Positions 526-55,769 of a stretch of DNA of 64,000 bases are shown piece after piece (position 1 is the first letter of the stretch; each line of letters begins with the position of its first letter). The notes beneath the pieces are model-generated. The model had not been told where the DNA came from. It saw only the letters and a program-made list of their open reading frames with translations, and did no database searches. This stretch comes from a virus (taxonomy: Duplodnaviria > Caudoviricetes): positions 79,483 to 143,482 of the IMG/VR virus record IMGVR_UViG_3300043812_000016. One strand, 5' to 3'. Both the position numbers and the translations under genes were made by a program.

Positions 526-3500
526 GTGAGCAAGCAAGAAGATACAAATATTAAGGTTACGGCTGATGTTGACCCCGCCAAAGCGAGTCTTCGAGAAATT
601 GAGGATCTAGTTAGTTCTACCCAACAGAAGATTAATCGGGTATTTAGTACTGTACAAGATAATAACGGTCAGATTAGTAATAAGCAGTTAGCTGGGGTTC
701 AAAATGGCTTTGGTCGTTTAGACGAAGTTAAATCCGCTTTAGATAATGCTCTTAACCAAGCTAAGGCAACTCAAAATGGTTCTAAGCTAGAAGAAAGCAT
801 TAATACTTTAGCTCCTAAGTTAGATCTAGTTGTTAGTAGTTTAAGAGAGTTAAGATCTGGTAATAATAGTACTAAGCTTGATTCTATCTTTAATGCTCGT
901 ACAACTACTTCTCGTGCTTTTAGAGATGATAGTGCTACTATTCGTGGTGAACAGGGAGACTTTAGTCAACAAAATTTACATTATGAGAGTTTAGCTAGAG
1001 AAAGCCGATCTGATATTCATAATTTAGCTAGTTCGCTTAAACGTGAAATGGGTAACTTAGACGTTGGTAGGAAGTCTGGTTATATTTCATATAATCGTTA
1101 TCACCAGTACAAAGCCTCGTCTCAGTCTATTCAAAGCCGTTTGCAAGAACAACGAGATCGGTTTAATTCTCCTACTGGTGATATTGCTCGTTTTGCTAGT
1201 TATTATCAAAATTTACAAACTCAAGGCAAAAGAAGCTAATAATGTTGCTTCTGCACCGGGTGCAACTACTGAGCAGGTTCGTTATGCTAGAGCTTTAGAC
1301 GAACAAGTTAAGCACCTAGAAAAGGTTAATGAGCGATTTAAGAAGCAGGAAGAAGAATTACGAACTGCCGAAAAGAATTCAGAGTCGTTTAATGATCGCC
1401 TTAATGATACTCAAGGGAGTAACTATTGGCGATGATCCTAATTCTTTTATGGGTCAGCTTAATAAGCGTAAATATACTATTTTACGTGGTGCTATCTGCC
1501 TCGGAGGCGCTTCTATTGCTAGTGCTTATGCTCAAGGAAATAGTTTAAGACTTTCTAGTTTTGACGATATTAAGTCTACTGCATATGCTAATGGCGGTAG
1601 AGATGGTGAAGTTCTTAATACCTTAGGCGACTATGGTTATAAATATGGTTATAATGGCGCAGAAATGGGTCAGTTTGCCAATGCTTATACTTCTACTACT
1701 GGTAATGTGGGGAGTACTAGAGATGTTGCTGGTGTTGCTCAGACGTGGGCTAGACAATCTCGTATCACAGGAGCTAATGCACAGAGTACTTTAGGGCTAG
1801 AACAGACTGTCGGTAATAGTGCTAATTTAAATTCTAGTCAGATGAGTAGTGTTGGTAATGCAATTACTAATTCTATTATTAATTCTGGTATGAGTGCTAA
1901 GGCAACTGAACAGCAACAAGGATTATCTATGTTAATCCAGAATGCAAGTAATCAGGGTCTTACTGCTCGTGATGAAAAGAACTTAGCGGGCTTCCAAGGT
2001 GCGATTGCTAGTGGCGGGGCACAATTCCAAGGTACACAAGGCGCTCAAAATACTATGCAGTTAGCTCAAGGATTAGGTAATGTTAATAACCCAATGATGA
2101 GACAGCTTTTTGCTCAGTCTAATCCTAGTCGCTATACAGGGGTAGAGGGTTCTGCTAATATGGTTTTTGATATGCAAGAGTTCCAGAAGAAACCATGGAA
2201 GATGAAAGGAATTCTCCAAAATGCTGAAAAAGATTTTGGTAGTCGCAAGGTTGCTTCCGCTAATCTATATCAGGCGACTGGTGTTCCGGCAGAGACTATT
2301 GAAAAGTGGATTCAATTAGCAGATTCTGGTAAGTTAGACAAGAAGCATATAGATAAGCTAGAAAAATCATCTAGTGCAAGTAAAGAAGGCGGGAAAGCAG
2401 ATCAGGATTATGATAAGACGGGAGCTTCACAACTTCAAAAGTATAATTCTGCATTAGCTGATTCTGCTATGAAAGCTAGTCAAGCTTTAGACGGTTTACG
2501 TGGTATTATTGCTAAGGCTTATAAGGCTGGTGGTGGGTTATCTCCATTTGTTTCTGGTGTCGCTAGTGCATTTGGTGCTGGTGCTGGAAATCTTATGAGT
2601 ATCTATGCTCTTGATAGGCTAAGAGGTAAAGGTGGTTCTGGAGGTGCTGGAGGGTCTGGTATCTTAGGGCGTATCTTTAAAGGTGGTAAATCACCTGTAG
2701 AAAAGGAAGCTGAAAAAGCAACTGCTAAAGCTGGAGAAGAAGCTGTTAAAATTGGTGCTAAATCAGTTTCCCGTTCTGGTATCAAAGCTACTGCTTCTGG
2801 TATTCTAAAGTCTAGTAAATTAAGAGGTTTAGTTCGTGGTGCTAAGGCTGGACTACCGGGTGTTGGTGATTTAGTCTTTGGCGGTTTAGACTTAGCCACC
2901 TCTGTTGCAACTACTAAGAAAGGTACTAAAGCTCGTAGAAAGGCTGTTGGTTCTAGCTTAGGCTCATCTGCTGGTAGTGTTGCTGGTGGGGTTGTTGGTG
3001 GACTGATAGGTTCAATTTTCCCCGGTGCTGGTACTGCGGTTGGTGCAGTTGCTGGTAGTGTAGCTGGTGGCTGGTTAGGTGATAAGTTTGGTGGTTTCCT
3101 TGGTGGTAAGATAGGTAAGTCTAAGGATAAAGCTATTAATAAAGCTAAAGGACAATCACTTAGAGACGCTCGTAAGACTGCAAGTAAGTATAATAAGTCT
3201 GGTGGCGTACTAAGAGGTATTCTAAAGAATGGTAAGCGATTCTTACCGGGGGTTGCTCTTGGTATTGCAGGCTTAGGCTTAATGGACGATTTCTTTGGAG
3301 GTAAAGCTAAAGCTTCCTCAAAGAAGGGCAGTGAGAAATCAGAAGCATGGCGTATTTTGCGTGGCTATGATAAAATGCTTGATCATGCTATGCGAGTAGT
3401 TCAATCTGCTAAGTCTATTAAGAACGGTGGAGATTCTAGTTCTAAGAGTGACGACTCAGATATATCTGGTACTTCCGGTGAGGGAGAAAAGGCTATTCGG

Positions 3501-4268
3501 AGCGTTGCAAAAGCTATTGGTAAGAAGCTTGGTGTTGATCCTAAACTAGTTTATGCACAATTGATGCACGAAACTAATGGCGGTACTCATATGGCTGGTA
3601 AAAACAACTATGGTGGTATTGTTTATGCTGGTCAGAAAGGTGCTAAAGCTGGGTCTCATCAGCCAGACGGTAGTGGTAATTATGCAGACTTTGATAGCCT
3701 AGACGACTTTGCTAATGCTTATGCTTCTACTCTTCAGAAGATGGGTATTAATAGTAGTATTAAGTCTGTTAATGACTGGGCTAATCAGCTTCATAGTAAG
3801 GGTTACTTTACTGATTCTCCTGCTAATTATGCTGGGGGAATGGAAAGATTTGCTAAGCAGTATGCTGTTGGTGGTATTCGTCAATACGCTTCTGGTAGTC
3901 CTTTAATCACAGATCATCCAACTACTAATAATGGTAGTGATGTTTATGGTGAGGCTGGGACAGAAGCTTATGTACCATTAAATGCTGGTCATTACTTTAG
4001 TGGGCTTTCTACTTTAGACGACTTAGCTGGTATCTTTGGTAAAAAGGTAGTTAATCCGGGAGTTTCTGAGTCAGGTGGAAAATCAACTACTATTAATCCA
4101 AGTTATAATATTAACCTTACGATTAATGGTGGTACTGATGATCCAGATACATTAGCCCAAACAGTGGCTAATAAAGTAAGAGAAATGCTAAGTCAATATG
4201 ATAGTCAGCAAGCAATGAGTAACCAGCAAACATTCTTTGCTAATGAAACTTCTGGACTTCTAGTCTAA
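526..4268 (+). CDS. Tape measure protein with C-terminal glucosaminidase (GH73-like) domain; split into 3 ORFs by two apparent +1 errors
   Basis: Long helical G/A/S-rich sequence. C-terminal motifs AQLMHET...NNYGGI...YADFDSLDD...GYFTDSPANY. The pieces join if one G is removed at ~1225 and at ~1415. Confidence 0.85.
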
Positions 4269-4310
4269 ATGAAGTTATAATTTAGTTGAACATTTGTTAA
4301 TACACACCCA

Positions 4311-4347
4311 AAAATCCTCTATGTTTCAGACGTACATAGGGGATTTT
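4311..4347 (+). terminator. Intrinsic terminator after the TMP
   Basis: AAAATCCTCTATGT...ACATAGGGGATTTT stem. Confidence 0.65.
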
Positions 4348-4373
4348 GATTTATATTAAAACTAAATAAAGGG

Positions 4374-7300
4374 GTGAAAATTTTGCCAAAAATAGATATT
4401 GGTGCTTATCGACAAGTAGCAAGTAAAAAGAAGAAACCTTTTCATGTAGACTCTAAGTCTGCTGGACAAGCACTAGATCATAAACAAATTAAATCACATA
4501 TAGATGTAGGTGCTTATGGTGGAGTATCAGACGCTTATAAGAATAAAGGTCATAAGTCTGGTTCTTCTAAAGGCGGGGACGATAAAGATATTTCAAAGGC
4601 TGATGAAAACTATAAACAAATAATGCAGGAGTCTTTGAATTTAAGACAAACTCCTACCCCTCGTTATCCTACTCATATAGACCATAAGCCGGGTGATATA
4701 GCTAAATATGGTTCTATTTCAACGTCTGGTTATTTACAGGTAACGGTAGCAACTATTTCGGGTACTTATCCTTTAGTCCCCCGTTCTGTGTCTCATCAAA
4801 TTCCAGATGATACACAAGATAAATTAATTGCTGATCTAATTTCAGTGCAAGTACAAAATGATATGCAAAATGATATTCCAACTTTGACTATGATTTTAGG
4901 CAATAGTCATGATTGGTCTTCCCTTTTTGCTGTTAATGATTTAATTCGGGTAGACTATATCTTACCAGACAAACAGTATCGTCAATTTGATAAGTGTATT
5001 TATACTGGTTTAGTTTCTAATTTAACTCGTAATGCTAATTACAATGGAGCGCAAGAAACTTATACGGTTGTAGGTCAAGGTATGGCTAAGATTATGAGTA
5101 ATATTCAGTTGTCTACTTTTTCTGATTTACAGTCTAACCTTAATGGTTATCAACTGCTCCCAGACGATGAAAAGACGGGGATTGGTTTTAAGCAACATAC
5201 GTCTGCTAATATTATTAAGCAGATTATTAATCGATTTGTTTTGCAAAACCAAGGTGGAGTAAATACCTATGATTACTTAAATGGTCAAGGTGGTCGAGAT
5301 ATTACTGATCGGGCTACTCCAGTTAAAGCAGGTGTAGTTAATGATTTTATGGGTCAACCAAAGAGCCAAGCTGATTATCAAGCTTATTTAGATTCTTTAC
5401 CAGATAAGAATGGTAATACCGCCGATGGTTCAGACCAGAATTCAGATACAGACCAGAATGGGAAGAATAATGATCCAGAAACTAATAATCAAGTTAGTTG
5501 GTTAAATATCCCCATGCAGGTATCGGAAAATGGAGAATTACCTATTCAGAACTTAATTGAGTTTTATATCTACGAGAATTTAGACGAGTCCTACCCAGAC
5601 GCAGGCCCAAGCAATCCATTCTTAAATTATAATGGTTCCATTCTCCAGTTTATTAAAGACGTTTCTGCTAAGCCTTTTAATGAAATGTATTGGACGCACG
5701 ATCGTGGGTTAGCTACTTTTAATTACCGCCCTACACCGTTTGATCCCGAAAATTGGATGGGCTTGCCTGTTAATGAAATTGCTCCCGGTGATATTATGAG
5801 CGTTAATATTCAAAACAATGACCAAGAGCAGGCTTCGATCTTTAAGCTTACGCCTACACAAGGTATGGGGATAGATCAGTATGACGGAGGCTTTACAGGG
5901 AATATGGCACCATTAACTAATATGGAGCTTATTCACCGTTATGGTTATAAGTTAATGAATGTACAAGTTGATTACTTTAATGGTAATAAACAAGAGGATC
6001 CACTGTCACAAGTAACAGCAGGGACGACTAATGCAGACAGTGAAGCTATGAAAGGGTGGACTCAAGAAGAAGCTATGCTTCATGCTCCTTATTACACATC
6101 TGTAGTTGATGCTTTTTATTATACTAGTGGACGTAAGGCTAACGGAGAAGATATTTCTATTCCTAAAGAAGCTGGTGGATCTGCTCAGTATAATGCTGTA
6201 AATGAAGCGATTAAAGCTTCTGGTAATGCTTATGATTTTGCTCGTTCGGTTGCTGGGTTAGGAATTAGTCAAGAAGACGCTAATACACTATGGACAATGC
6301 GTAATCACTTTAATCGCACTAGCTACCTTAGTGTGATGATGCCTAATTACACTCCTACTAATACAGCTATTTCTAAGAATTCTAAGTATTTAAAGAGTTA
6401 TGATCGGATGGCTAAAAACCCTGAAAAAGCGGCTGGTGAGTTGATTGACGAAATGGGTTATACAATTGGACCAGAACAGGCTTGGGAAATTGTACAGTCT
6501 GCTTTAGCTAATGGGGGTAAGCCTAGTGAGGCTGATTATGACCGGATTATGAATTCAGTTCCTTTTGACCAAGGACATGATGGTATTAATGGATCACCAG
6601 ATAGTGGTCAGCAATCTGTACCTTTCTTATTCCTTAGATATACCCAGAAATTATTTGATTGGTACGCAGATAATGCTAAGTTCTATTCTGGCACGATTAC
6701 TTTAGGATCGCTTTCTACACCAATGGTAGATTGGATTGGTGAGCGGGTAATGTTTTATGATGACCCTTCTGGTGTCTGGTGGGAATTTTATTGTGAAGGT
6801 GTGACTACTAGTTGGAGTTATGCTAATGGACTACAAGTTACATTGAATGTTACTCGTGGTGTTCCTTTAAGATCTGAAACAGATGACTTTTATCGTAGAT
6901 TTACTGAACCATGGAGTTTTAAGGGTAAGTTTACTCGTTTCCTTGGTGGCTACTTTGGTGAGCAAAATCTTGCTACTGCTATTTCCAATGCAAGTAAAGA
7001 TAGTGGAGGAGATAGTGGAGGAAAAGGTTCGGGAGACCTCATAGAAAAAGCTAAGGATATTATGAATAATGAAAACTGGAGCTATTCACAACCTATGCGT
7101 ACAGATTTTCGCAAGAATGGTCATGCAGATTGTTCAAGCTTTGTTTGGTATGTATGTAATGCTTGTGGGTATGATGTAGGTTCATCTGCCTTTACAACTT
7201 ATACAGAACCTAGTATTTTAGATGAAATTAGTGCTGATGATACTGGTTCAGGGTCTATTGTTGTTAATGATAATGGTGGTAATTCACACACTGCTTTTCT

Positions 7301-7454
7301 TGAAGAGAAGTGGAAGGGTGATGATACAGCAATTATTAATATGGGTGGTCGAGACAATCACGGTGGACCTAGTGGAGATGTTAATGAAGATACCTATGGA
7401 ATGGCTTTTGCTAAAGGTGGGTCAATAAAATTTTATAAGCCAAAAAAGAAGTAA
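4374..7454 (+). CDS. Baseplate hub / tail-associated lysin with C-terminal NlpC/P60 peptidase
   Basis: Follows the TMP as in Twort-like phages. KPFNEMYW and YRPTPFD hub motifs; C-terminal YSQ..R...DCSSFV...HT. Confidence 0.85.
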   Translation: MKILPKIDIGAYRQVASKKKKPFHVDSKSAGQALDHKQIKSHIDVGAYGGVSDAYKNKGHKSGSSKGGDDKDISKADENYKQIMQESLNLRQTPTPRYPTHIDHKPGDIAKYGSISTSGYLQVTVATISGTYPLVPRSVSHQIPDDTQDKLIADLISVQVQNDMQNDIPTLTMILGNSHDWSSLFAVNDLIRVDYILPDKQYRQFDKCIYTGLVSNLTRNANYNGAQETYTVVGQGMAKIMSNIQLSTFSDLQSNLNGYQLLPDDEKTGIGFKQHTSANIIKQIINRFVLQNQGGVNTYDYLNGQGGRDITDRATPVKAGVVNDFMGQPKSQADYQAYLDSLPDKNGNTADGSDQNSDTDQNGKNNDPETNNQVSWLNIPMQVSENGELPIQNLIEFYIYENLDESYPDAGPSNPFLNYNGSILQFIKDVSAKPFNEMYWTHDRGLATFNYRPTPFDPENWMGLPVNEIAPGDIMSVNIQNNDQEQASIFKLTPTQGMGIDQYDGGFTGNMAPLTNMELIHRYGYKLMNVQVDYFNGNKQEDPLSQVTAGTTNADSEAMKGWTQEEAMLHAPYYTSVVDAFYYTSGRKANGEDISIPKEAGGSAQYNAVNEAIKASGNAYDFARSVAGLGISQEDANTLWTMRNHFNRTSYLSVMMPNYTPTNTAISKNSKYLKSYDRMAKNPEKAAGELIDEMGYTIGPEQAWEIVQSALANGGKPSEADYDRIMNSVPFDQGHDGINGSPDSGQQSVPFLFLRYTQKLFDWYADNAKFYSGTITLGSLSTPMVDWIGERVMFYDDPSGVWWEFYCEGVTTSWSYANGLQVTLNVTRGVPLRSETDDFYRRFTEPWSFKGKFTRFLGGYFGEQNLATAISNASKDSGGDSGGKGSGDLIEKAKDIMNNENWSYSQPMRTDFRKNGHADCSSFVWYVCNACGYDVGSSAFTTYTEPSILDEISADDTGSGSIVVNDNGGNSHTAFLEEKWKGDDTAIINMGGRDNHGGPSGDVNEDTYGMAFAKGGSIKFYKPKKK

Positions 7455-7473
7455 AGTTGGATTGATTTTTACT

Positions 7474-7509
7474 AAGAAATAGAGGAATTAGATTCTCTAT
7501 TTCTTTTTT
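7474..7509 (+). terminator. Intrinsic terminator
   Basis: AAGAAATAGAG...CTCTATTTCTT followed by a T-run. Confidence 0.75.
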
Positions 7510-7522
7510 ATTTTTGTATTTT

Positions 7523-7570
7523 TTGTACAAAAGTAGTTGAAAATTCAACTAAAAGTGTTATACTTAAAAC
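7523..7570 (+). promoter_or_regulatory. Conserved sigmaA-type early promoter with palindrome, copy 1
   Basis: TTGAAA-16-TATACT with TG extension; palindrome TAGTTGAA-AA-TTCAACTA; near-identical copies at ~37366 and ~56510. Confidence 0.8.
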
Positions 7571-7596
7571 ATGAATTAGGGAAAGGAAGCATAACA

Positions 7597-8109
7597 ATGA
7601 AGAAAGGTAGTACATCTGATTTAGTAGAAGATATTAATAAGAAATATGATCCAGAAACGATTAAGAAAACGTTGATTAAGTTTCAGCAATTGCAAGAATT
7701 GGGTTGGGAGATTATCATTGATCCTGTAGAGAATGAGGCTTATAGTATTAAATCTGATGATGAAACAAAAATTGTTTATCGTCCTTATGTATATGCGCCT
7801 GATCGACATGGTGAAGATTATATCTTGAACTTAGATACTTCTTTTGACTCATATTATAGTTATTTACAATGTTTAGTTGATACTGTTAAGGCTGTTTCTA
7901 AGTTAGATAATCATTATAATTGTCCTTATTGCTCTATGATTAATGGAGAAGGTAAAAAGATAGAAATTGATAAAGATTCTTATATGAGATATAAGACTGA
8001 TGGTGATATTATAAGGTTGATCGTTTATCGGAGTGATACTATTGAACCCGAAGAGGTACAGGATATTGACTCTAGTTATTGTATGATTTGTGGGAGGAAA
8101 TTATCATGA
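7597..8109 (+). CDS. Hypothetical protein with CPYC...CMICG zinc ribbon
   Basis: SD GAAAGGA precedes ATG 7597; two CxxC pairs. Confidence 0.7.
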   Translation: MKKGSTSDLVEDINKKYDPETIKKTLIKFQQLQELGWEIIIDPVENEAYSIKSDDETKIVYRPYVYAPDRHGEDYILNLDTSFDSYYSYLQCLVDTVKAVSKLDNHYNCPYCSMINGEGKKIEIDKDSYMRYKTDGDIIRLIVYRSDTIEPEEVQDIDSSYCMICGRKLS

Positions 8110-8438
8110 GTAATCAAAAACCAAAAGGTGTTGGGGACGTAAAGATTACCCAAAAAGACGTAGATAATTTTTTCAATTCTATCCACACGGACGCTTTAGT
8201 AGACAGTATTAAGATGTCTTATAAACCAACTTTTAAAGTTAAAATTATAGAAGAAGTTCCTAATTATGCTCCTACTTGGGAAGATATAGAAAAGGATAAT
8301 ATTACTCATCATTATACCTTAGAGGAAGAGGTTAATGAATTTATTAGGGATAAAGAGGTAATTAGTATCCAGTATTATTCTTATCCAAAGAAGAGTGTTT
8401 TGATTACTTATAAGGAGTATGATAATGAAAAAGCATGA
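8106..8438 (+). CDS. Hypothetical protein
   Basis: GGAGG SD; ATGA overlap with previous gene. Confidence 0.7.
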   Translation: MSNQKPKGVGDVKITQKDVDNFFNSIHTDALVDSIKMSYKPTFKVKIIEEVPNYAPTWEDIEKDNITHHYTLEEEVNEFIRDKEVISIQYYSYPKKSVLITYKEYDNEKA

Positions 8439-8586
8439 TCTTTATATGAAAATTGTATTTACTTTAATGGTTATATGTATTTTCGTTGGGTTTAGTATTA
8501 TGCTCTTTTTTAAGAGTTTTGTAGGTATTTTTATTGAATTTTTAGCATTAGTTGTATTATGGATTGCAGTAATATGGGATTCTTAG
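8425..8586 (+). CDS. Small 53-aa two-TM membrane protein (not in ORF track)
   Basis: AAGGAG SD; MKKHDLYMKIVFTLMVICIFVGFSIMLFFKSFVGIFIEFLALVVLWIAVIWDS; fills the gap in the operon. Confidence 0.65.
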   Translation: MKKHDLYMKIVFTLMVICIFVGFSIMLFFKSFVGIFIEFLALVVLWIAVIWDS

Positions 8587-8598
8587 GAGGGGCTATTA

Positions 8599-8811
8599 AT
8601 GAAGAAGTTAACTAAATTACAACAGATTTGTCCTTATTGTCATTCATATGCAGAAGAGGAAAAATTAGATGTAAGCCCCAGTGGTGATTGCTGGTTAAGT
8701 ATGTCTATGTGTGGGATGGTTGAGTATCATCTAAATGATATTACGATAGGAGCAAGTGAAAAATTTGGATTTTGTCCTATGTGTGGAAGGAGTTTGTCCG
8801 ATGTTGAATAA
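8599..8811 (+). CDS. Small zinc-ribbon protein
   Basis: CPYC...FCPMCGRSL; AGGAGG SD. Confidence 0.7.
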   Translation: MKKLTKLQQICPYCHSYAEEEKLDVSPSGDCWLSMSMCGMVEYHLNDITIGASEKFGFCPMCGRSLSDVE

Positions 8812-9097
8812 ATTAGAAAAAAAGTTAAAACAATTAGATCAACACTTGAGTTGTAAAGTTGTTACTAAAGATGAAGGTAAGTCTAAGTTAGTTGGTAATA
8901 CTTTAATTATGTCTCAGCATAGTGCTGGTGACGTTTTAATTAAATACGATAGTAACGTGATTCTAAAGCTAACAGATGTTAATGAAACCCCCGCTATAAG
9001 GATTATGCTTGACTATGTTGATAAGGATAACGCAGAATTACTTTCAACATTAATTAAGTTGTGTAGTATTTATTTACCAGATAGTGAGGAGGATTAA
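8801..9097 (+). CDS. Hypothetical protein
   Basis: AAGGAG SD before ATG 8801. Confidence 0.6.
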   Translation: MLNKLEKKLKQLDQHLSCKVVTKDEGKSKLVGNTLIMSQHSAGDVLIKYDSNVILKLTDVNETPAIRIMLDYVDKDNAELLSTLIKLCSIYLPDSEED

Positions 9098-9351
9098 TGA
9101 TACACAAGTACAGAAAGATAGTTCCAATTAAAGCTGAGCAATTTAAAGCTACTAATAAACAGATAAGTGATTATCATATTGGCTTAGAGCGAAGCCGGGG
9201 TCATCATCACCAAGTTAAGTCCTATTATTTACCTACTAAAGAGGGGGAAATGTTATTGCATATTGGTGATTATATTGCTACCGGTGTTGAGGATGAGCAT
9301 TGGGCTGTTGCTAAAGATATATTTGAGAAAACATATGAAAGGGTGGAATAA
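9097..9351 (+). CDS. Conserved small phage protein (T.EG.M...GDYI..G..E.W.V..DIF.KTY family)
   Basis: Recognisable motif; translationally coupled. Confidence 0.7.
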   Translation: MIHKYRKIVPIKAEQFKATNKQISDYHIGLERSRGHHHQVKSYYLPTKEGEMLLHIGDYIATGVEDEHWAVAKDIFEKTYERVE

Positions 9352-9545
9352 TGAAGTTTTTAGAGGGTTTAAGCTTTGGCTGGTGGTCCAGTGGGTTATT
9401 ATTTTGGGTACTAGTCCTTATGATTGATTCACCGATTAGCTGTAGTTATAAAACTTTAGCAATTATACTTTTAACTCTTGAGGCTATAATCTTTTTTGTT
9501 GGTCTTGGAGTTTGGGTTTATCTTATGTGGAGGTCTAAGAAATGA
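9351..9545 (+). CDS. Small membrane protein
   Basis: Two hydrophobic segments; coupled. Confidence 0.6.
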   Translation: MKFLEGLSFGWWSSGLLFWVLVLMIDSPISCSYKTLAIILLTLEAIIFFVGLGVWVYLMWRSKK

Positions 9546-9808
9546 CTAAAGTTAAAGTAAAGAAAACACGCAAGTTTCATTCAGCAGAGGCTTGGATTGT
9601 AAAAGATTGTCAAGGCAATTATGTAACGTCTGTAGAGTTCTTATGAGATACGCCTAAGAATGTTAAGACTGCTTATTATAATAAGCCTGCGTTTGATATT
9701 CTTAAATTCGGACAAATTTGTGTGTTTAATAATTATTTAGAAGCTTGTGCAGTTGCTAATGAATGCGGTGGTAAGGTCTATGAATTAGGATTAATTAAAG
9801 TGAGGTAG
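9542..9808 (+). pseudogene. 88-codon ORF interrupted by a single in-frame TGA at 9644
   Basis: GGAGG SD and ATG at 9542; frame continues after the TGA to TAG 9806-9808, just before the next gene. Confidence 0.5.
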
Positions 9809-9814
9809 GCTAAA

Positions 9815-10279
9815 ATGGGTATAGAAGATTTTATTAATCATTTAAGAAGACTTGAAATAAGTGTATGTAGGTTAGATGGTACTCGCTATATTTTACATAC
9901 TAAGTACACTAAAAGTGCTTTTTTAGTTATTAATTTAGATTCAGAAGAGCTTGTAGAAAGCTGTCATTGGAATAATTTAAGTCATATAGACTATGGATGC
10001 TTATTGTTAGTGATGAATGAGATAGAAGACTTTAGAAAGACACCTATTAATTTGCGTTCAAAATTAAAAGAGTATACTATCCAAGTATTAATTGGTAATT
10101 CTCAAGGTTATCTTAAATATTATTTACCAGATAGAGAATTTTCTATTGGTAGCAGTATTAAGTCAGACAATTATCAAATTGCTTTTACTAAAGATGAAAT
10201 CGAAGGATTTAAAAAACGTAATGATATTGCTGTTGATTGGAATAAAGCAATAATTAAGGAGGTAGACGAAGATGATTAA
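9815..10279 (+). CDS. Hypothetical protein (Lactobacillus prophage-like C-terminus)
   Basis: C-terminal FTKDEIE.FKKR.DIAVDWNKA. Confidence 0.65.
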   Translation: MGIEDFINHLRRLEISVCRLDGTRYILHTKYTKSAFLVINLDSEELVESCHWNNLSHIDYGCLLLVMNEIEDFRKTPINLRSKLKEYTIQVLIGNSQGYLKYYLPDREFSIGSSIKSDNYQIAFTKDEIEGFKKRNDIAVDWNKAIIKEVDEDD

Positions 10280-10763
10280 ATATAACAGGAAAGATCATAT
10301 CTTAGAAGTTGATACTCCTACTAATAAGTTTGAATTAGATCAAGCCGATTTATCTTCTTTACGACAAGCTTTATCTGATTTACCTGCTCATAATTCAAGT
10401 GAATTAATTAATTTAAATTATTTGAAAGACTTATACAGTAATCATCAAAAGTATCTTACTTATTTAGCTTATAATATGGTCTATAATTTAATCTTAAAAT
10501 ACATCTATGAGGATTTTAATATATCTAAATGGTACATTCCCTATGATTACGAGGGTGTGGCATCTTTTTCAGGTAGTGAATTGATTCCCGGATATAAAGA
10601 TACCATTTTATGGGGAGGTATTCCTGATAAGCTTATTTTGGAACAAGCTGAATTAGTTTTAAAAGACTTAGAATCTCATGGAATTAAGATTAAAAACTCT
10701 TATACCGAAGATGGTGAATTGATAGTATATGTAGACGAAAGTATTTTTAAGGATGGTAAATAA
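10272..10763 (+). CDS. Hypothetical protein
   Basis: AGGAGGT SD; operon context. Confidence 0.65.
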   Translation: MIKYNRKDHILEVDTPTNKFELDQADLSSLRQALSDLPAHNSSELINLNYLKDLYSNHQKYLTYLAYNMVYNLILKYIYEDFNISKWYIPYDYEGVASFSGSELIPGYKDTILWGGIPDKLILEQAELVLKDLESHGIKIKNSYTEDGELIVYVDESIFKDGK

Positions 10764-10765
10764 TT

Positions 10766-11299
10766 ATGTATGCACTTTATAATACAAAGACTGGTAATTA
10801 TGTAAAATCAATTGGTACTTCTGCTTTTGATAATGCGAAGATTTATTCTGAAACGGCTATGCTGGCTGAAGTTCCTTTTCTTAGTAAAGATCTTTATACA
10901 GCAGACCAGTTAAAGAATTTTAACACCCTAGCTAATATGGCTGATAACACTTTAGGTAATAAGGCTGTATCAATTGAAGATTCACTTAATTGGGGGTTAA
11001 ATAAGGTAAGTTCTCTGCTTTATTCTACTACCCGTGATATTTATAATAAGGATCTTATTAAAGGTGAAGATTTGGGGTCATTAACAGACACTTTTATTTC
11101 AATGATGTCTAGCTATCTTGATTTTGACGTTAATGCTTATCTAAAGGATAAAGCTACTTATTTAGCTACTTTTAATGGACCAATTAATGATGAATTGGCT
11201 AAGAAAGCACAAGAAGCTCAGAATGCTAAGAAACAAGCACAGGCTGAGAATGATCAGAAGCAAGCTGAGATTGACGCAAAGAATAAAGTAAAGGATTAA
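10766..11299 (+). CDS. Hypothetical protein, paralog of 11316
   Basis: N-terminal YALYN.K...VK shared with next gene. Confidence 0.65.
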   Translation: MYALYNTKTGNYVKSIGTSAFDNAKIYSETAMLAEVPFLSKDLYTADQLKNFNTLANMADNTLGNKAVSIEDSLNWGLNKVSSLLYSTTRDIYNKDLIKGEDLGSLTDTFISMMSSYLDFDVNAYLKDKATYLATFNGPINDELAKKAQEAQNAKKQAQAENDQKQAEIDAKNKVKD

Positions 11300-11315
11300 G
11301 GTAGGGTGTTAAACT

Positions 11316-11765
11316 ATGAAATATGCTCTTTATAACAATAAGGAAAATAAGTTTGTTAAGCTTTTAGCTACTCGAATGCTAAGTCATGAAACTATTTATG
11401 AATTAACATCTGATGTGGAAGAAGTTAAAGAATTGACTGATAAGCCATATACAGAAGCAGAACTACATCATTTTGAAGAAGTAGCTGGAGTAGAAAAAGG
11501 GTCTTTTGAAAATTACAAATTAAGTATGCAAGATGAGGAGGCTTATACGGTATATAATGCAGGAGACAAAGCTTTGCAATCTATCCATGATTATTTGTGT
11601 ATGTTAGATCCTCGTAATGTAGATGGTATTGCCGATTTTGTAGATCGGATTCAGTTGGCTATTTATAATGTGACTGACTTTGATATGGAAGAATATTTTG
11701 AAGATAAAGATTATTATTTAGATGATTTAAGAGGGGAGAATGACTGGGACAATGAAGATGATTAG
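11316..11765 (+). CDS. Hypothetical acidic protein, paralog of 10766
   Basis: Shared N-terminal motif and DFD...Y..DK..YL motif. Confidence 0.65.
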   Translation: MKYALYNNKENKFVKLLATRMLSHETIYELTSDVEEVKELTDKPYTEAELHHFEEVAGVEKGSFENYKLSMQDEEAYTVYNAGDKALQSIHDYLCMLDPRNVDGIADFVDRIQLAIYNVTDFDMEEYFEDKDYYLDDLRGENDWDNEDD

Positions 11766-12099
11766 CCTAGTAGTTGGGTTATTATGTATTATTCTTATCC
11801 TATCTGTTGCTTATCTTATTAAGAGAGTAAATAAGCTAATTGACTATGTTTTAGGTAAAGATGATTCACTTATCAATCTTAGTGTTCCTGATACGTCATA
11901 TATTGAATTACCAGACTATCTTTTCGTGCTATCAGTTTTTAGTAAACCTATTAATGACCGTATAATTATTGGGGTCTATAGCAGTAGTGATAAGGCAAAA
12001 GAACGACTTAACTATTATAAAAAGTCATTTAGACATCCTGAAAATTATACAGATTATCGAATTGACCCTATTCCTAATAATTTAGAGGAGGATAAGTAG
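11740..12099 (+). CDS. Membrane-anchored hypothetical protein
   Basis: N-terminal TM; C-terminal IIGVYSS.DKA motif. Confidence 0.6.
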   Translation: MTGTMKMISLVVGLLCIILILSVAYLIKRVNKLIDYVLGKDDSLINLSVPDTSYIELPDYLFVLSVFSKPINDRIIIGVYSSSDKAKERLNYYKKSFRHPENYTDYRIDPIPNNLEEDK

Positions 12100-12620
12100 T
12101 GGAATATTTATTTGCTATCTTTTTGGGTGGGGTAATGTTTGGTGTAGGCTTATCTGGACTAGTTAAGTTTATTTTAGTTATATTTAATAATAAGAAAGGA
12201 AACTCTAAACCTAAGTCTGTTACTTATGATGATAAAACTCTTATTAAGAAGTCATATCCTCTTGTTAGTACTCATTATACCGCACAGGAGATCAAGGATA
12301 GAGTTCATGACAATCGAGATCAGCATAGACAAGACGTTGTGGACGTTTTCTTTAGTCAATTAAACTTTGCAATTAGTCATGACTATTTAGGATCATCTTA
12401 TGTAATAAATGTTGACTTATACGAGAGAGCCAGTCTTCCTGATGTTTTCATTTCTTCTAAGGACTTAGAATTTTTGAGATTATATTTATCTATTTATTAT
12501 GGATTTGATACAAAGATCGAAAAACAAAGTGGCTATCACGATGTTGATTATTTATTTTTAATAGTATCTTGGGAAGATCCTAAAGTACCCTTGATTGTTT
12601 TTAATAAAGGAGAAGATTAA
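12099..12620 (+). CDS. Membrane-anchored hypothetical protein
   Basis: N-terminal TM. Confidence 0.6.
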   Translation: MEYLFAIFLGGVMFGVGLSGLVKFILVIFNNKKGNSKPKSVTYDDKTLIKKSYPLVSTHYTAQEIKDRVHDNRDQHRQDVVDVFFSQLNFAISHDYLGSSYVINVDLYERASLPDVFISSKDLEFLRLYLSIYYGFDTKIEKQSGYHDVDYLFLIVSWEDPKVPLIVFNKGED

Positions 12621-13147
12621 TGGTTATTAATGACTACAGTTTGATTATTGGTATCATTATTGGTATTTCTATTACTGTTATTATAGGCTTGATTGCTATA
12701 AATCGAGAACCTAAGGTTGAGTTGGAACCTCAAAAGGTTAAATTACCTGAGAAACAATCTTCTGATGATATAGCTTCAATAAAAAATGAGATAAGTAAGC
12801 TGTGGAACGCTCTTTCAGATATTGGTCAAAAAAGCGAAAAGTTCTTTGATAGCTATAGTGATAGATTAGTAAGTGTTGAACAGCATATAGGTACTGATTT
12901 AAAGAACGATGATCCTCGTAGACATCTGCGTGTTAATGGGTTTAATCGTCCAGTTGTTTTTGTTGTTAATTATACATATAATGACGGATATGGCCCTTTT
13001 AATTGTTCTGATGCTTTTGCTTATAAAGAAGACGCTTATGCTTTTGTTAGAAAGTTAAAAGAATCCTTAGGTAGTGTAAAAGATATATCAATTAGTCCTA
13101 TGATTGTTTATCTTGATAAGGATAAAACACTAGATAATGTGGATTAA
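12620..13147 (+). CDS. Membrane-anchored hypothetical protein
   Basis: N-terminal TM and coiled coil. Confidence 0.6.
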   Translation: MVINDYSLIIGIIIGISITVIIGLIAINREPKVELEPQKVKLPEKQSSDDIASIKNEISKLWNALSDIGQKSEKFFDSYSDRLVSVEQHIGTDLKNDDPRRHLRVNGFNRPVVFVVNYTYNDGYGPFNCSDAFAYKEDAYAFVRKLKESLGSVKDISISPMIVYLDKDKTLDNVD

Positions 13148-13160
13148 TCTTTAGCAAAGG

Positions 13161-13189
13161 TTGACAACCATGGGTGTATGCTTTATACT
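13161..13189 (+). promoter_or_regulatory. Consensus sigmaA promoter for sRNA1
   Basis: TTGACA-17-TATACT. Confidence 0.85.
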
Positions 13190-13194
13190 AATAA

Positions 13195-13285
13195 TGTTCC
13201 TTAATTCAGTAAGGAAATTGTTTCAAACTTTTATCTGAATTCTTTGTTTGTTTTTCTTTGGCAGGGTTTGTCCCTGTTTTTTTTT
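13195..13285 (+). ncRNA. Candidate ~90-nt sRNA1
   Basis: Lies between a consensus promoter and terminator GGCAGGG-TTTGT-CCCTGTT + T-run. 5' hairpin TTCCTTA/TAAGGAA; no SD-led ORF. Confidence 0.65.
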
Positions 13286-13329
13286 ATCTTAGCTATTGTA
13301 TTTTAATTAAAGTGTGATATACTATAATC

Positions 13330-13452
13330 ATGGTTATGTTAATGAATTATTTAGTTTGACTGGCAGAGACTCGATAATTGTTATACATTACCTTCTTTAT
13401 TAAGATTAGTCGATTAAAAGAGTGCTTATCCTGTTGGGTAGGCGCTCTTTTT
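13330..13452 (+). ncRNA. Candidate ~120-nt sRNA2
   Basis: Promoter TTGTAT-16-TGnTATACT (13296-13323); terminator AAAAGAGTGCTTATCC/GGGTAGGCGCTCTTTT; anti-SD tract CCTTCTTT. Confidence 0.6.
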
Positions 13453-13514
13453 ATTTTGTATATTGTAGATCATACCTGATGAAGTTATAATTAACTTGTA
13501 TAGGAGGTTTTAAA

Positions 13515-14681
13515 ATGAGTAGAAGAAAAACAATAGAAGAATTTAAGCAGGAAGTTTACAATTTAGTAGGTAACGAGTATACAGTAAAGTCTAATACATA
13601 CGTTAATGCTCATACTAAGTTGTTGATAATACATAATAAGTGTGGCTATGGGTGGAAGGTTACACCTCTTAGATTTAATCGTGGACAACGTTGTCCCATC
13701 TGCTCTAAAAAGCCTAAGGATAGTGCTGAGAGGTTAGCCTATGAGGTTTTAATAGATACAAATAATAATTGGTATTTAGATTATAATACTAAATCTGATA
13801 TTTTTCTTACTAGTAGGGTTAATCTTATTAATTGGAAGACAGGAGAATCAGTGAATTTAACTTGGAACAAATTTAGGGTAGGAGGCATTAATGACTCATC
13901 TTTTAAATATTTAGTTAGTAGTATTAAGAATAATTCAGTAAAGAAACGAGTTCAGTTAACTAAATTAGCTATTAGTAAAATTACTCCACCCTTAGTATTT
14001 AAACATCATTTTGACTCGATTGTTAATGGTAATTATATGTTACTTAGTCCTTATCAAGGTTCAAATAAAAAGATTAAAGTGAAACATCTTGTCTGTGGAA
14101 ATACTTATTGGGTAAGGCAGGATAAGTTTATTAATGAGGGCCAAAGATGTGCTTGGTGTGCTTCGCATCACAGCATTCAATCCTATAGTAAGAGACTTAG
14201 TGATGTTAGTAAGTCTCGATATATACTTATAAATAATAATGAGTTTAAGAATAGCAAGTCTTATGCTACTTATTTGTGTACTCGTTGTGGACGTAGGTTT
14301 AAGCAACGTGCTGATTTAATGTTGCAGGGGTATGGTTGCCCTTATTGTAATCAGTCTACTGGGGAGAGATTAGTTGATAGGGTCCTTTCACAGGTCTACC
14401 AATTAGAGGAGTCTCAAGATTTTTACTATGGTTATGTATTGCCTAATAAATTACATTTAGACTTCTATTTACCTTCATCTAACTTAGCTATTGAATATGA
14501 TGGTAAACAACATTATGTACCTGTAGACTATTTTGGTGGAGAAGAAGGATTTAAAAAGATTCAAGATAGGGATAGAAAAAAAGATAAGTATTGTAAGGAG
14601 TGTGGTATCAAGCTAATTAGGATTCCCTATACTATTAATACCTATAGAGGGATAAAAGAGCTACTAGCCTCTTACCTGTGA
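13515..14681 (+). CDS. Free-standing homing-endonuclease-like protein: H..CG/CPxC zinc-ribbon repeats + Vsr/DUF559-like PD-(D/E)XK nuclease
   Basis: C-terminal HLDFYLP...AIEYDGKQH...RDRKKDKYC...IKLIRIPY; own promoter TTGTAG-17-TATAAT at 13463-13491. Confidence 0.8.
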   Translation: MSRRKTIEEFKQEVYNLVGNEYTVKSNTYVNAHTKLLIIHNKCGYGWKVTPLRFNRGQRCPICSKKPKDSAERLAYEVLIDTNNNWYLDYNTKSDIFLTSRVNLINWKTGESVNLTWNKFRVGGINDSSFKYLVSSIKNNSVKKRVQLTKLAISKITPPLVFKHHFDSIVNGNYMLLSPYQGSNKKIKVKHLVCGNTYWVRQDKFINEGQRCAWCASHHSIQSYSKRLSDVSKSRYILINNNEFKNSKSYATYLCTRCGRRFKQRADLMLQGYGCPYCNQSTGERLVDRVLSQVYQLEESQDFYYGYVLPNKLHLDFYLPSSNLAIEYDGKQHYVPVDYFGGEEGFKKIQDRDRKKDKYCKECGIKLIRIPYTINTYRGIKELLASYL

Positions 14682-14682
14682 T

Positions 14683-14711
14683 GGGGTGTCTATTAAATTA
14701 GACACCTTTTT
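14683..14711 (+). terminator. Intrinsic terminator
   Basis: GGTGTCTA...TAGACACC followed by a T-run. Confidence 0.7.
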
Positions 14712-14791
14712 GTTTTGTTCTATATTAATTATTGACCACTAAGATATATCTTAAAATTTTACTTTTCTAATTAGAAAGGAGTTGTCGATAA

Positions 14792-15473
14792 TTGGCAACT
14801 GTAGCAGGACAAACGGTAAACACGGGTAACCGAATTTATATTATGTGTAAGAACCATTTAATTGCACGTGCTCAAAGTTTGACAGCTAATAGAAGTTACG
14901 GTACCGAAGGGGTATACGAAATCGGATCCATTAACTAGCATAGTGGTGGTTAACAGTAATGTTAATTGAAAAATTCTACTAAACGGGTAAAGCTGAATAA
15001 CTGAATTGAATAGGCTAGTAAGAAAGGCTACGTCCAGAGGTGGATAGAGCTAACCAACCGTTCTAAAACAAAAGACTAACGATTAAGTCCTTATTAGATT
15101 AAGATAAGGTAATGTAGAACCTCTTATAGAGAGGAAGATATAATCTAATCTTTTTAGAAATAAGTAGTTAATATAATGTATGCCAAGGGAACACGTATAC
15201 CTCAAATATACGGGTTCTCTTACACTAGAAAGATTTCGTATGGTACGAGATAACCTTGCATCTAAACAAATGGATATAGCCCATCTGGGAGAAGACATCT
15301 TGCAAGCTGACGTTTTAACCATTTCTGTAATGGATAGCGTTACTAAAATGGTAGTCGAAGCGTTTTACGGATGCAGTGCTTCCACCTACAACACCAGTTA
15401 TAGAGCCAATCAAATCGTATCTGAATCTATTGAGTTTCTTTACCTCAGCTCTTCGACTGGCTCACAGTCATAA
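14792..15473 (+). CDS. Tail tube protein, spliced: join(14792..14931,15179..15473), 144 aa
   Basis: SD AGAAAGGAG, TTG start. Spliced product MATVAGQTVNTGNRIY...RAQS...YGTEGVYEIGSI|MPREHVYLKYTG...EFLYL matches the Twort/K-type tail tube signature. Confidence 0.9.
14932..15178 (+). mobile_element. Group I intron, 247 nt, no ORF
   Basis: Exon ends in U, intron ends in G. P1 CCAU|UA:UAGUGG with U.G; P10 GCAUA:UAUGC; P3 UUCUAC:GUAGAA; P4 AACGG:CCGUU; P7 AGAUUA:UAAUCU; P8 CCUCU:AGAGG; S-like AAGAUAUAAUCU. Confidence 0.9.
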
Positions 15474-15643: not shown

Positions 15644-17491
15644 TTGAAAAAATTAACTTTTGAAGAATTTAATTATAGGGCACAGCGTATGCTAGGATCT
15701 AGTTATGTTTTTTACCCTCCATATAAGGATATGAAAACGCCTATTAAATATAAGCATTTAGTGTGTGGGACTACTGGAACTTTAATTCCTGATAATATTT
15801 TTAGAGGTAAAGCTAAATGTAAGTATTGTAGTATGAGGAGGAGATCTGGTAGACGTATGATAACAGACGATGAGTTTAGGAAGAGGCTACATAAAGTTCG
15901 CCCTAGCGATGATATTATTTTACTTGAGCCTATACATGGTATTTTTAAGAAAACCAAGGCAAAATGTCTCGTGTGTGGGTATGGTTCAAAAGGTGAATGG
16001 ACTCCTCTTCCAGTTAACTTATTAAAGGGTAAAGGGTGTCCTAATTGTGCAGGTAATGCTCCTAAAACACCAGATAGTGTAATTAAAGAAGTTAGAGATT
16101 TAGGGAATGGTGAGTATGAATTATTAGGAACTAAGAGAACTAAAAAAGATGGTTTATGGTTACATTTACTCCATAAAGAGTGCGAAAATGATTATTGGGT
16201 TCGTGACTATAGTTTCATACATGGTTATCGTTGTAAATTTTGTGCTAACAAAGCAACAGGCGACAGATGTAGGCTATCCTTAGACGAAGTTAAGCAACGA
16301 ATTACAAGGGTTGCTGATGGTCGTTATACATATGTAAGTGGTAATTATAAGAACAACCAAAGCCCTATCTATGTAAGGCACAACGTATGTGGTACTGTGT
16401 TTAAAACCACATGGGGGCAACTTAGTGCTAATAAGGGCTTGTGTCCTAATTGTGGGTCTTCTAATGGTGAACAGGCGATTATGAACTATTTAGTATCACA
16501 CAGGGTTAGTTACTCTTATGGCTACTTAATTCCAGACTTAATAGATAAGAAAAATCTTCACTTTGACTTCTGGTTGCCTCAAGTCAATACTGCTATAGAA
16601 TATGATGGTCAACAGCATTTTAAGCCTGTCGATTTGTTTGGAGGTAAAGAGCGCTATGAATTACAGAAGAAACACGATAGGATGAAAGATGATTACTGTA
16701 AGAAAAAAGGTATTAATTTAATTAGGATTAAGTATAATGAAAATATTAAAGATACTTTAAATTGTTATCTTTTACCTCTAGTAGATAAGCTTAGTGATGT
16801 TGATTTTAGAAAGGTAGAAAGTACAGAGCTTAATGAGTTAATGATTAAGTATCATTATTTACACCGTAAAGTGACTACTTCTTATTGTTATGGTTTATAT
16901 TATCGAGGAAGTCTGGCAGGAATGGTAACATATACGAGACCTAGAATTAGCCTTGCTCAGTCAATCTCGCCTTTAGCTAATAAAGATAACACCCTAGAAT
17001 TATCCCGATTATACATAAAAGACGAAGTAAGCCAAAACTTAAAGAATATTACTTCTAAGTTTGTCTCATGGACTTTAAGACAATTAAAGCAAGAGCAAGA
17101 TGGCAACTGGTTTATTATCTCTTTTGCCGATCAAGGTATGCACCATACGGGAGCAATCTATCAAGCTACTAATTTCTTATACTGTGGGACTACTAAACAT
17201 CGTGAATACTCTTGGAATGGATATGGTAAGCATGGCGGTGTATGGGAAAAAGGTCATTACTATAGGTATATGATAATTAGTCCTATCAAATATCGTTACA
17301 TTATGTTCTTAGGATCAAAGACTTTTAAGAAACAAGCCCGTAAGACCCTTAAATTTGATATTGAACCTTATCCTAAACAAGATAGCGTTCACTATTCTGT
17401 AGGTGATACAGAGGAAAGACTAATTCGAGACCGAGAAACTGGTAAGATTTGGAAAGAGTCTGAGTTAGTTAAACATCTAAAGAAAGATTAA
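15644..17491 (+). CDS. Zinc-ribbon-repeat Vsr/DUF559-like endonuclease fused to a Mom-family (GNAT) DNA-modification domain
   Basis: Four H..C/CxxC repeats; HFDFWLP..AIEYDGQQH; then HYLHR...LELSRL...SFAD..H.G.IYQATNF.Y.G typical of Mom-like proteins; promoter TTGAAT-16-TATAAT at 15593-15620. Confidence 0.8.
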   Translation: MKKLTFEEFNYRAQRMLGSSYVFYPPYKDMKTPIKYKHLVCGTTGTLIPDNIFRGKAKCKYCSMRRRSGRRMITDDEFRKRLHKVRPSDDIILLEPIHGIFKKTKAKCLVCGYGSKGEWTPLPVNLLKGKGCPNCAGNAPKTPDSVIKEVRDLGNGEYELLGTKRTKKDGLWLHLLHKECENDYWVRDYSFIHGYRCKFCANKATGDRCRLSLDEVKQRITRVADGRYTYVSGNYKNNQSPIYVRHNVCGTVFKTTWGQLSANKGLCPNCGSSNGEQAIMNYLVSHRVSYSYGYLIPDLIDKKNLHFDFWLPQVNTAIEYDGQQHFKPVDLFGGKERYELQKKHDRMKDDYCKKKGINLIRIKYNENIKDTLNCYLLPLVDKLSDVDFRKVESTELNELMIKYHYLHRKVTTSYCYGLYYRGSLAGMVTYTRPRISLAQSISPLANKDNTLELSRLYIKDEVSQNLKNITSKFVSWTLRQLKQEQDGNWFIISFADQGMHHTGAIYQATNFLYCGTTKHREYSWNGYGKHGGVWEKGHYYRYMIISPIKYRYIMFLGSKTFKKQARKTLKFDIEPYPKQDSVHYSVGDTEERLIRDRETGKIWKESELVKHLKKD

Positions 17492-17612
17492 GGGGAATTA
17501 AGAAAGAGGTATAACAACGAAACTGTTGGAGAATATTCTTTCTTTTTATAATTAAGTATTGACAACCTGTCTATTCTATTGTATTATAATAGCTGTAAAG
17601 GAGTTGTTAAGT

Positions 17613-18227
17613 ATGCGAAGAAAAACTGATAAAGAATTTAAACAAGAATTGCATGATTTAGTAGGTGATGAATATACAGCTTTAGATCATTATGAGAAAG
17701 GAACAATTAAGATTCATATTAAGCATAATAAATGTGGTCATGTGCTATATGTTTATCCTTTGGCTTTTTTACAGAGACCTCACTGCCCTTATTGTAGTGG
17801 TCGCCCACGTTACACCCCAGCAGAGTATAGGGAGTATGTAAAAGAAATGACTAATGACGAATACGAGGTTTTAGATGATTTTGTAAATAATAGGACACCA
17901 ATTCGTTATAAGCATAAGAAATGTGGTACTGTATTTAAGACTCTTCCTAATACCTTTAGTGTTGGGTCTGCTCGCTGTCCTGTATGTGCTAATAAGATTC
18001 GTTCTAAGAAGCAATCCTTAACTACTGAGGAATTTAAGGAGCGAGTTCGTAACTTACCACATGGAGACGAATTCGAAGTTCTATCTGAATATAAAGGCTA
18101 CCACCAACGTGTTACCTTTAAGCATAAGAAGTGTGATACTGTATGGATGACTACCCCAGCCAGTTTCTTTCTTAGTAAACATAAGTGTCCGGTATGTGCA
18201 ATTAATTCAACTAGAAAGGTTAAGTAA
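17613..18227 (+). CDS. Zinc-ribbon-repeat protein without a nuclease domain
   Basis: Three KH.KC..CP.C repeats only; AAGGAG SD; TTGACA promoter at 17559. Confidence 0.75.
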   Translation: MRRKTDKEFKQELHDLVGDEYTALDHYEKGTIKIHIKHNKCGHVLYVYPLAFLQRPHCPYCSGRPRYTPAEYREYVKEMTNDEYEVLDDFVNNRTPIRYKHKKCGTVFKTLPNTFSVGSARCPVCANKIRSKKQSLTTEEFKERVRNLPHGDEFEVLSEYKGYHQRVTFKHKKCDTVWMTTPASFFLSKHKCPVCAINSTRKVK

Positions 18228-53845: not shown

Positions 53846-53914
53846 TCAAATTCTAATAATACAAGCTAAAGTAACTATATTAGAAAAAGATAACAAAAGA
53901 GAGGATGAAATAAC

Positions 53915-54494: not shown

Positions 54495-54520
54495 AAGTAA
54501 TAAAATGAAAGGAAAATTCG

Positions 54521-55114: not shown

Positions 55115-55128
55115 GAGGGTACGAGTAA

Positions 55129-55737: not shown

Positions 55738-55769
55738 GGTTAAAGAGTGAGGTAACTGTTAATAAAAAT

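Follow-up and report, generated by a model that had tools for sequence, protein, structure and literature searches.

A small ORF-less group I intron, very probably functional, in the only tail-tube gene of a Lactobacillus-type phage

Background

Among the closest described systems is the tail-tube gene orf142 of Staphylococcus phage Twort, which is interrupted by three self-splicing group I introns of subgroup IA2, designated I1-I3 (Landthaler & Shub 1999, as cited in PMC10136302 and PMC11878797). The gene is also reported to show exon skipping (PMC11878797, PMC10136302), and its intron I2 is the crystallised Twort ribozyme (PMC3984707). The Twort tube gene is located after the tail sheath gene, and its product shares 54.7% protein identity with the tube protein studied here over residues 1-117; the gene is uninterrupted to approximately residue 117, and the three introns, all of them positive with the group I covariance model RF00028, lie beyond this point. 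A different line of work described collaborative (trans) homing, in which ORF-less group I introns are combined with free-standing endonucleases, as in the psbA gene of cyanophages (Zeng, Bonocora & Shub 2009, as reviewed in PMC3984707).

In this work, a split tail-tube gene was analysed in a 64,000-nt stretch of DNA from an uncultured phage (the window), which corresponds to bases 79483-143482 of a 143,482-bp IMG/VR virus record rated complete by CheckV. We conclude that the phage's only tail-tube gene is interrupted at 14932-15178 by what is, with high probability, a functional group I intron lacking an ORF.

Results

The split tail-tube gene and its spliced product

The tube gene is part of a tail module that also encodes a tape-measure-like protein, a tail lysin, a tail fibre and baseplate proteins, with endonuclease-like genes interspersed. 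At this locus the closest relative in culture is Lactobacillus phage LfeInf. The coordinates of all features are collected in Table 1. Exon 1 matches positions 1-46 (of 141) of phrog_985, the Herelleviridae tail-tube protein family (E 1.6e-18), and exon 2 (T at 15179 followed by 15180-15470) matches positions 48-138 (E 2.1e-34). Position 47 corresponds to the split codon ATT (Ile), with the intron between its second and third bases. Exon 2 was also aligned to residues 48-138 of the structure 8q01_A in PDB, 'Tail tube protein' (E 4.9e-26), exon 1 has 76% identity to the tube genes of LfeInf and Bacchae in tblastn, and numerous tblastn matches are labelled 'tail tube protein'. By comparison with both phrog_985 and chain A of 8q01, the spliced product is a Herelleviridae tail-tube protein.

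Together, the protein alignment and the alleles that lack the intron determine where the exons join. In LfeInf the two exon matches are exactly one codon apart, i.e. the gene is uninterrupted, and the tube alleles of the relatives L017-L021 are also uninterrupted at codon 47. The motif of the spliced product, YEIGSIMPREHVYL, is continuous in LfeInf and Twort, and YEIGSIMPQEHVYLKY is unbroken in the Twort tube gene. A one-nucleotide ambiguity at the junction, where a T stands on either side, is resolved by the requirement for a 3'-terminal G in the intron. The original prediction, made from the sequence of this locus, had claimed that removal of 14932-15178 restores a conserved motif in frame; this claim holds, and the phrog_985 matches, LfeInf and Twort show the exon coordinates to be exact.

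Among the relatives the exons have 96-100% amino-acid identity, a clear sign of purifying selection. The CheckV-complete 143-kb genome contains a single phrog_985 locus, and a second, uninterrupted tube gene, which would make the split copy dispensable, was not found in it. In terms of open reading frames, the gene appears as a 48-aa ORF (14792-14938) and a 97-aa ORF (15180-15473). The exon-2-only products of 97 aa, all starting with MPREH, form a 73-member protein cluster, and the 48-aa exon-1 ORF is not in the protein collection, just as expected from the earlier claim that gene callers miss exon 1. From this recurrence it follows that the split allele is common and maintained, and it is routinely mis-annotated.

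The gene order in the region (window 1329-15473) is unusual for a Herelleviridae-type phage. The tube gene is located about 7 kb downstream of the tape-measure-like and tail lysin genes, the interval is occupied by small ORFs, and there is no sheath gene directly upstream of the tube gene. The upstream endonuclease gene is separated from the tube gene by a terminator-like hairpin (14683-14708; 10 pairs, then a run of T). A late promoter of its own for the tube gene may thus be present in 14709-14790.

Table 1. Features of the split tail-tube gene, its intron and the adjoining endonuclease-like genes (window coordinates)
Feature	Coordinates	Strand	Details
Free-standing homing-endonuclease-like gene (phrog_559)	13515..14681	+	E 7e-72; directly upstream of tube gene; presence varies among relatives
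Shine-Dalgarno-like AAAGGAG	14775..14781	+	10 nt 5' of the TTG start of the tube gene; same layout in relative L015
Tail-tube exon 1	14792..14931	+	TTG start, 46 codons and AT of codon 47
P1 hairpin	14928..14946	+	CCAU-UA (14928-14933; hyphen, splice site) with UAGUGG (14941-14946); invariant in four orthologs
ORF-less group I intron, 247 nt	14932..15178	+	R1 model, covariation, RF00028 16.7 bits
P2 hairpin GUUAAC/GUUAAU, conserved AGUAAU loop	14949..14966	+	6/6 pairs covary in family; same loop in Twort introns
P3 5' strand UUCUAC	14974..14979	+	Pairs with 15114-15119 (GUAGAA); compensatory paralog variants CUGUGU/ACACAG, ACUUAC/GUAAGU
P4-P6 domain	14983..15075	+	Helices 86-98% paired across family
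P4 ACGG/CCGU	14983-14986/15058-15061	+	4 bp
P5 local hairpin	14991-14994/15013-15016	+	Forms in all family members
Extra hairpin between P5 and P4 3' strand	15032-15036/15041-15045	+	Two fully compensatory ortholog pairs
P6	15062-15064/15073-15075	+	3 bp
P7 5' strand	15079..15085	+	A15079, bulged C15080, GAUUA 15081-15085; 100% paired in family
Single P7.1-type hairpin CCUUAU/AUAAGG	15089..15109	+	21 nt; endonuclease ORF at this place in three terminase paralogs
P3 3' strand GUAGAA (15114-15119) and P8 CCUCUU/GAGAGG (15120-15125/15129-15134)	15114..15134	+	P8: 100% paired, 5/6 pairs covary
J8/7 AAGAUA, then P7 3' strand UAAUC(U)	15135..15146	+	Conserved in all family members
P9 hairpin with GAAA tetraloop (15150-15156/15161-15167), 3' tail, terminal G 15178	15150..15178	+	7/7 pairs covary
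Tail-tube exon 2	15179..15473	+	T finishing codon 47, 97 codons, TAA stop; first five bases UAUGC form P10
Free-standing endonuclease-like protein fused to Mom-family domain	15644..17491	+	PF25680, 107 bits; 615 aa; directly downstream of tube gene

Splice sites and fold of the intron

The 5' splice site follows U14931, which forms a U.G wobble with G14943 in P1, and the guide also pairs with the 3' exon: P10 is formed by the exon-2 bases UAUGC (15179-15183) and GCAUA (14938-14942), located immediately 5' of the P1 guide. Together, P1 and P10 make a continuous 9-bp guide across the ligated junction; both are invariant among the orthologs, and a junction-spanning guide of 9 bp is found by chance at approximately 1.4-1.5% of shuffled or random sites. 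The intron ends with a terminal G (omega G) at 15178. An in-frame stop codon, TAG at 14936-14938, lies in the P1 loop, five bases into the intron. No ORF of at least 30 aa was found on the + strand inside 14932-15178, i.e. the intron lacks the homing endonuclease gene of its own that mobile introns of that kind carry.

The occupied and empty sites differ in the exon bases that pair in P1 and P10 (14926-14931 and 15179). The intron-bearing alleles read GGATCCAT before the junction and TATGCC after it, and the intron-less alleles read either GGTTCCAT followed by CATGCC or GGTTCAAT followed by TATGCC (L017-L021 and Twort compared).

The elements named in the original prediction, namely the U.G splice-site pair, P10, P3, P4, P7, P8 and the terminal G, are all present on direct reading of the sequence. 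P7 contains a G-C pair beside the bulge, G15081-C15145, which by analogy with the general group I architecture is the presumed G-binding pair, and it is accompanied by a conserved J8/7. The J8/7-P7 segment reads GAAGAUAUAAUCUAAUC versus gAAGAUAUAGUCuaauc in the RF00028 consensus, and the segment agrees with the consensus GAAGAUAUAGUCUAAUC. Several features count against a functional group I intron: P6 and P4 are just 3 and 4 bp long, and the extra hairpin in the P4-P6 domain is unusual. The P9 helix of the studied copy has a U.U mismatch that is absent from the relatives L014 and L015. A long-range alternative for P5 (AGCU 14991-14994 with AGCU 15048-15051) was rejected, being impossible in two ORF-less paralogs from the terminase gene (terL) of the same genome, T1 and T2.

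With regard to subgroup IA2, which is marked by P7.1 together with P7.2 between the 5' strand of P7 and the 3' strand of P3 and by relatedness to the introns of T4, SPO1 and Twort, the studied intron has one hairpin at this place (15089-15109) and T1 and T2 have none, while the covariance model R1 described below detects homology to the IA2 introns of Twort. The intron is related to the Twort orf142 introns and probably belongs to a phage IA2-like lineage, the IA2 assignment itself being a loose one.

Covariation

Across the four orthologs (89-99.6% identical), 98.3% of the pair cells are standard, with two compensatory pairs and nine one-sided changes that preserve pairing. In 16 family sequences, 94.7% of the pair cells are standard and 46 of the 58 pairs change on both sides, a result reached by none of 500 shuffles and compared with 35-44% in slid controls; the 16-sequence alignment was fitted to the model structure, which inflates pairing, and P7 is outside that model. 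P7 itself is 100% paired in the family, and its variable pair is C-G in six sequences, U-A in four and U.G in one. The description of P7 as an A-U variant is thereby supported by family covariation at the variable position. The core of the intron thus consists of the P3-P8 and P4-P6 domains with a P3/P7 pseudoknot, as is characteristic of group I introns, and its helices covary.

Covariance models and folding statistics

The score of the intron with RF00028 was 16.7 bits (E 0.046 in a 301-nt search), below the gathering score of 50. At the gathering threshold no RF00028 match was found in the whole window, and a permissive RF00028 scan of the 10-kb terminase region gave nothing at E <= 1; sub-threshold matches of this model are visible only in short stretches. 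In such stretches, the terminase paralogs T1 and T2 scored 32 and 39.5 bits (E 3e-6 and 1e-8). As a positive control, RF00028 was applied to the three introns of Twort orf142; it gave them 64-101 bits, and given these high scores the weak score here reflects a real shortfall of the generic model for the studied lineage. RF00028 thus misses this lineage, since all three members scored in short stretches are below its gathering score. The minimum-free-energy fold was no better than those of shuffles (z -1.26) and did not recover the pseudoknotted core.

The covariance model R1 was built from four sequences, the studied intron and three orthologs, with P7 deliberately left out. R1 gave 328 bits for the studied intron, one of its own building sequences, 48-125 bits for the terL paralogs of the same genome, 97-112 bits for a second tube-gene intron in L013-L015, and 66 and 51 bits for the terL introns of phages Goe17 and BE05, respectively. 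Two of the three Twort orf142 introns were also matched, I2 with 42 bits (E 4e-12) and I1 with 33.5 bits (E 3e-9). A further R1 match at window 28475-28669 (13.2 bits, E 0.02) lies inside an intact 477-aa baseplate-wedge ORF and was discarded as noise. A search with group I models had been proposed as a check: RF00028 stayed below its gathering score, and R1 found both the terL paralogs and two Twort introns.

Related introns in the terminase and tube genes

The same intron was found at the same site in four IMG/VR contigs (L013-L016; 89-99.6% identity). In addition, the terL gene of the studied phage (53.5-58.2 kb of the genome, outside the window) contains at least five related introns, which share segments of 76-95% identity with the tube intron; three of them carry an endonuclease ORF of phrog_559 right after the P7 5' strand. 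The tube intron shares 93% identity with one terL intron in its P3-P7 core and 95% with another at its 3' end, and on the basis of these identities it looks like a mosaic of two endonuclease-carrying terL introns. Among cultured phages, the similarity extends over approximately 100 nt and involves the terL introns of BE05 (Staphylococcus), Goe17 and SBSphiJ (both Bacillus), with ~72% identity for Goe17 and BE05, and blastn of the region against isolate phages did not find a full-length relative of the intron.

The terL gene (53500-58200 of the genome) is divided into at least six exons, including a micro-exon of about 60 nt, by its at least five introns of the same family. In one terL intron the endonuclease ORF continues through P3' and P8 into J8/7. 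Furthermore, the tube genes of L013-L016 have a second group I intron at codon 9/10 (about 2386-2643 in L015), which the studied phage does not have. Around codon 9/10 the studied phage shows clustered synonymous differences, GTA AAC ACG GGT versus GTT AAT ACT GGT.

The occupancy of codon 47 was surveyed with a 53-aa probe spanning this codon, which was covered to at least 80% in one place in 757 of 760 isolate genomes, their codon 47 being uninterrupted. Every match listed was a single piece, and the one listed with low coverage comes from a distant Thermus phage. Several kayvirus-type phages gave truncated exon matches near residues 113-127.

Endonuclease-like genes flanking the tube gene

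The product of the gene upstream of the tube gene (13515-14681) has a treble-clef zinc-finger and a DUF2726-like Pfam match, both below the Pfam cut-offs. The gene downstream (15644-17491) is present with 92-96% identity in all four relatives with the tube intron, an association that covers five closely related genomes and, these being close kin, carries little weight. The 615-aa Mom-fused protein, in which the other part is a zinc-finger endonuclease-like region, is followed by a 222-aa endonuclease-like fragment (17559-18227).

The phrog_559 endonucleases, labelled 'HNH', have no HNH domain in Pfam; the 13515-14681 product and that of a gene in the terL region (4417-5382 of locus L012, whose bases 3500-8200 cover the split terL gene) instead give treble-clef zinc-finger (DUF4379) matches. 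In both free-standing proteins beside the tube gene, a DUF2726-like match near the C-terminus surrounds an ...IEYDGxQH motif. The majority of the DUF4379 and DUF2726-like matches are below the Pfam cut-offs; they suggest that the phrog_559 endonucleases are of the PD-(D/E)xK type rather than HNH.

Discussion

The assignment of 14932-15178 as a group I intron is based on the directly observed exon structure, the fold and its covariation, the homology to introns described in the literature as self-splicing, and the lack of a second tube gene. From these observations we infer that the intron is catalytic and efficiently spliced in vivo, and also how it moves. A contractile tail cannot do without the tube protein; with a single tube gene, the intron would have to be removed efficiently. 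In the late pre-mRNA, the guide GCAUA-GUGG (14938-14946) would pair with the end of exon 1 to form P1, in which the U14931.G14943 wobble would mark the 5' splice site. After U14931 the chain would be attacked by a free guanosine bound at the P7 pair G15081-C15145, the terminal G15178 would then take over the same pocket while P10 holds exon 2 (UAUGC), and the 3'-OH of exon 1 would attack after G15178, giving the ligated ...GGAUCCAU-UAUGCC... and a 144-aa tube protein. On unspliced RNA, the in-frame UAG five bases into the intron would stop the ribosomes. The proposed steps are those of the standard group I pathway.

Three other readings of the locus were weighed. One dispenses with RNA splicing: the 48-aa and 97-aa polypeptides would assemble with each other, or ribosomes would bypass the gap as in T4 gene 60. 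It takes some encouragement from the ATG with which exon 2 happens to begin at 15180 and from the 97-aa product that gene callers predict. The break, however, falls inside a codon of the most conserved motif, no ribosome-binding site precedes 15180, the gap, at 247 nt, has about five times the length of the known bypass, and neither of these mechanisms explains a covarying group I fold, so that this reading has next to no probability. It is also very improbable that the element is a decayed, non-splicing remnant, and the gene a pseudogene or part of a defective-phage assembly. The weak RF00028 score, the P9 U.U mismatch and the short P4 and P6 speak for decay, but the genome is complete according to CheckV and has no second tube gene, four other contigs retain the intron with substitutions that preserve pairing, the exons at 96-100% amino-acid identity are under purifying selection, and the split allele recurs across the 73-member cluster.

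The third reading, suggested in the original prediction, accepts splicing and makes it a regulatory gate, where conditional splicing, dependent on the GTP level, the translation state or a phage factor, would time or throttle the synthesis of the tube protein. Because the sole tube gene holds the intron, tube output cannot exceed the splicing yield; an in-frame stop is located just inside the intron, and 'molecular switch' ideas for Herelleviridae introns have been discussed (PMC11878797). On the other hand, in close relatives such as LfeInf and L017-L021 the same protein is made from an intron-less gene, and other relatives have an extra intron in theirs, the element being thus dispensable and variable, as a selfish insert would be; moreover, no sensing element was found beyond the ribozyme core. 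We therefore consider a regulatory role unlikely. The intron is most simply explained as a selfish element, whose family has no fewer than six members in this genome.

The presence of the intron in some relatives and its absence from others indicate spread by recombination or homing, possibly aided in trans by the flanking endonucleases. A more specific scenario would have the tube intron and the second intron of the sister phages mobilised in trans by the flanking zinc-finger endonucleases, the phage protecting itself through the intron-disrupted target and through Mom-type modification of its own DNA; we regard it as speculative and rather doubtful. What the relationships do show is that introns of a single family have become established in the terminase gene as well as in the tube gene of a Lactobacillus-type phage, and that the copies bear signs of having recombined with one another. 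For annotation, gene callers give this clade just the truncated 97-aa product, so that many phage genomes from metagenomes have the essential tail-tube protein wrongly annotated; the exact junction described here corrects this.

Comparison with known systems

By sequence, the nearest relatives of the tube intron are the Herelleviridae terL introns (those in the phage's own terL and in vB_BsuM-Goe17, SBSphiJ and vB_SepM_BE05), which have the same core helices. They differ in their host gene, terL instead of the tube gene; furthermore, three of the own paralogs and the Goe17 intron have a phrog_559 ORF after the P7 5' strand, whereas the tube intron has only a 21-nt hairpin there.

The likeness to collaborative homing consists in a conserved gene that contains an intron without an ORF and is directly adjoined by free-standing phrog_559 endonuclease-like genes (13515-14681 and 15644-17491). 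Both flanking genes have homologues in the endonuclease ORFs that the terL paralogs of the intron carry. The downstream protein differs from the described case in its fusion to a Mom-family domain, and the likeness is one of adjacency and homology. An ORF-less intron flanked by free-standing endonucleases nevertheless offers a compact natural system for tests of trans-homing.

With Twort orf142, the studied locus has in common the host gene family and small, ORF-less group I introns, and the introns share a P2 with the AGUAAU loop, a GAAAAA J2/3, an xGAUAUAGUCU J8/7-P7 segment and a GAAA-capped P9. The differences concern both the site and the structure. The insertion is at codon 47 here and after approximately residue 117 in Twort, with one intron here versus three in Twort. 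The P4-P6 domain here has an extra hairpin before the P4 3' strand, and there is one P7.1-type hairpin only; one pair of P7 is A-U where Twort has G-C; and RF00028 gives 16.7 bits here versus 64-101 bits for the Twort introns. The view that an intron in a gene for a high-copy structural protein is without precedent has to be abandoned, since the tail-tube gene of Twort already has three. A tail-tube group I intron has thus been known in kind since 1999, and it is the codon-47 site that is new. With this site and the codon 9/10 site of the sister phages, a structural gene family already known to attract introns gains a second and a third insertion site.
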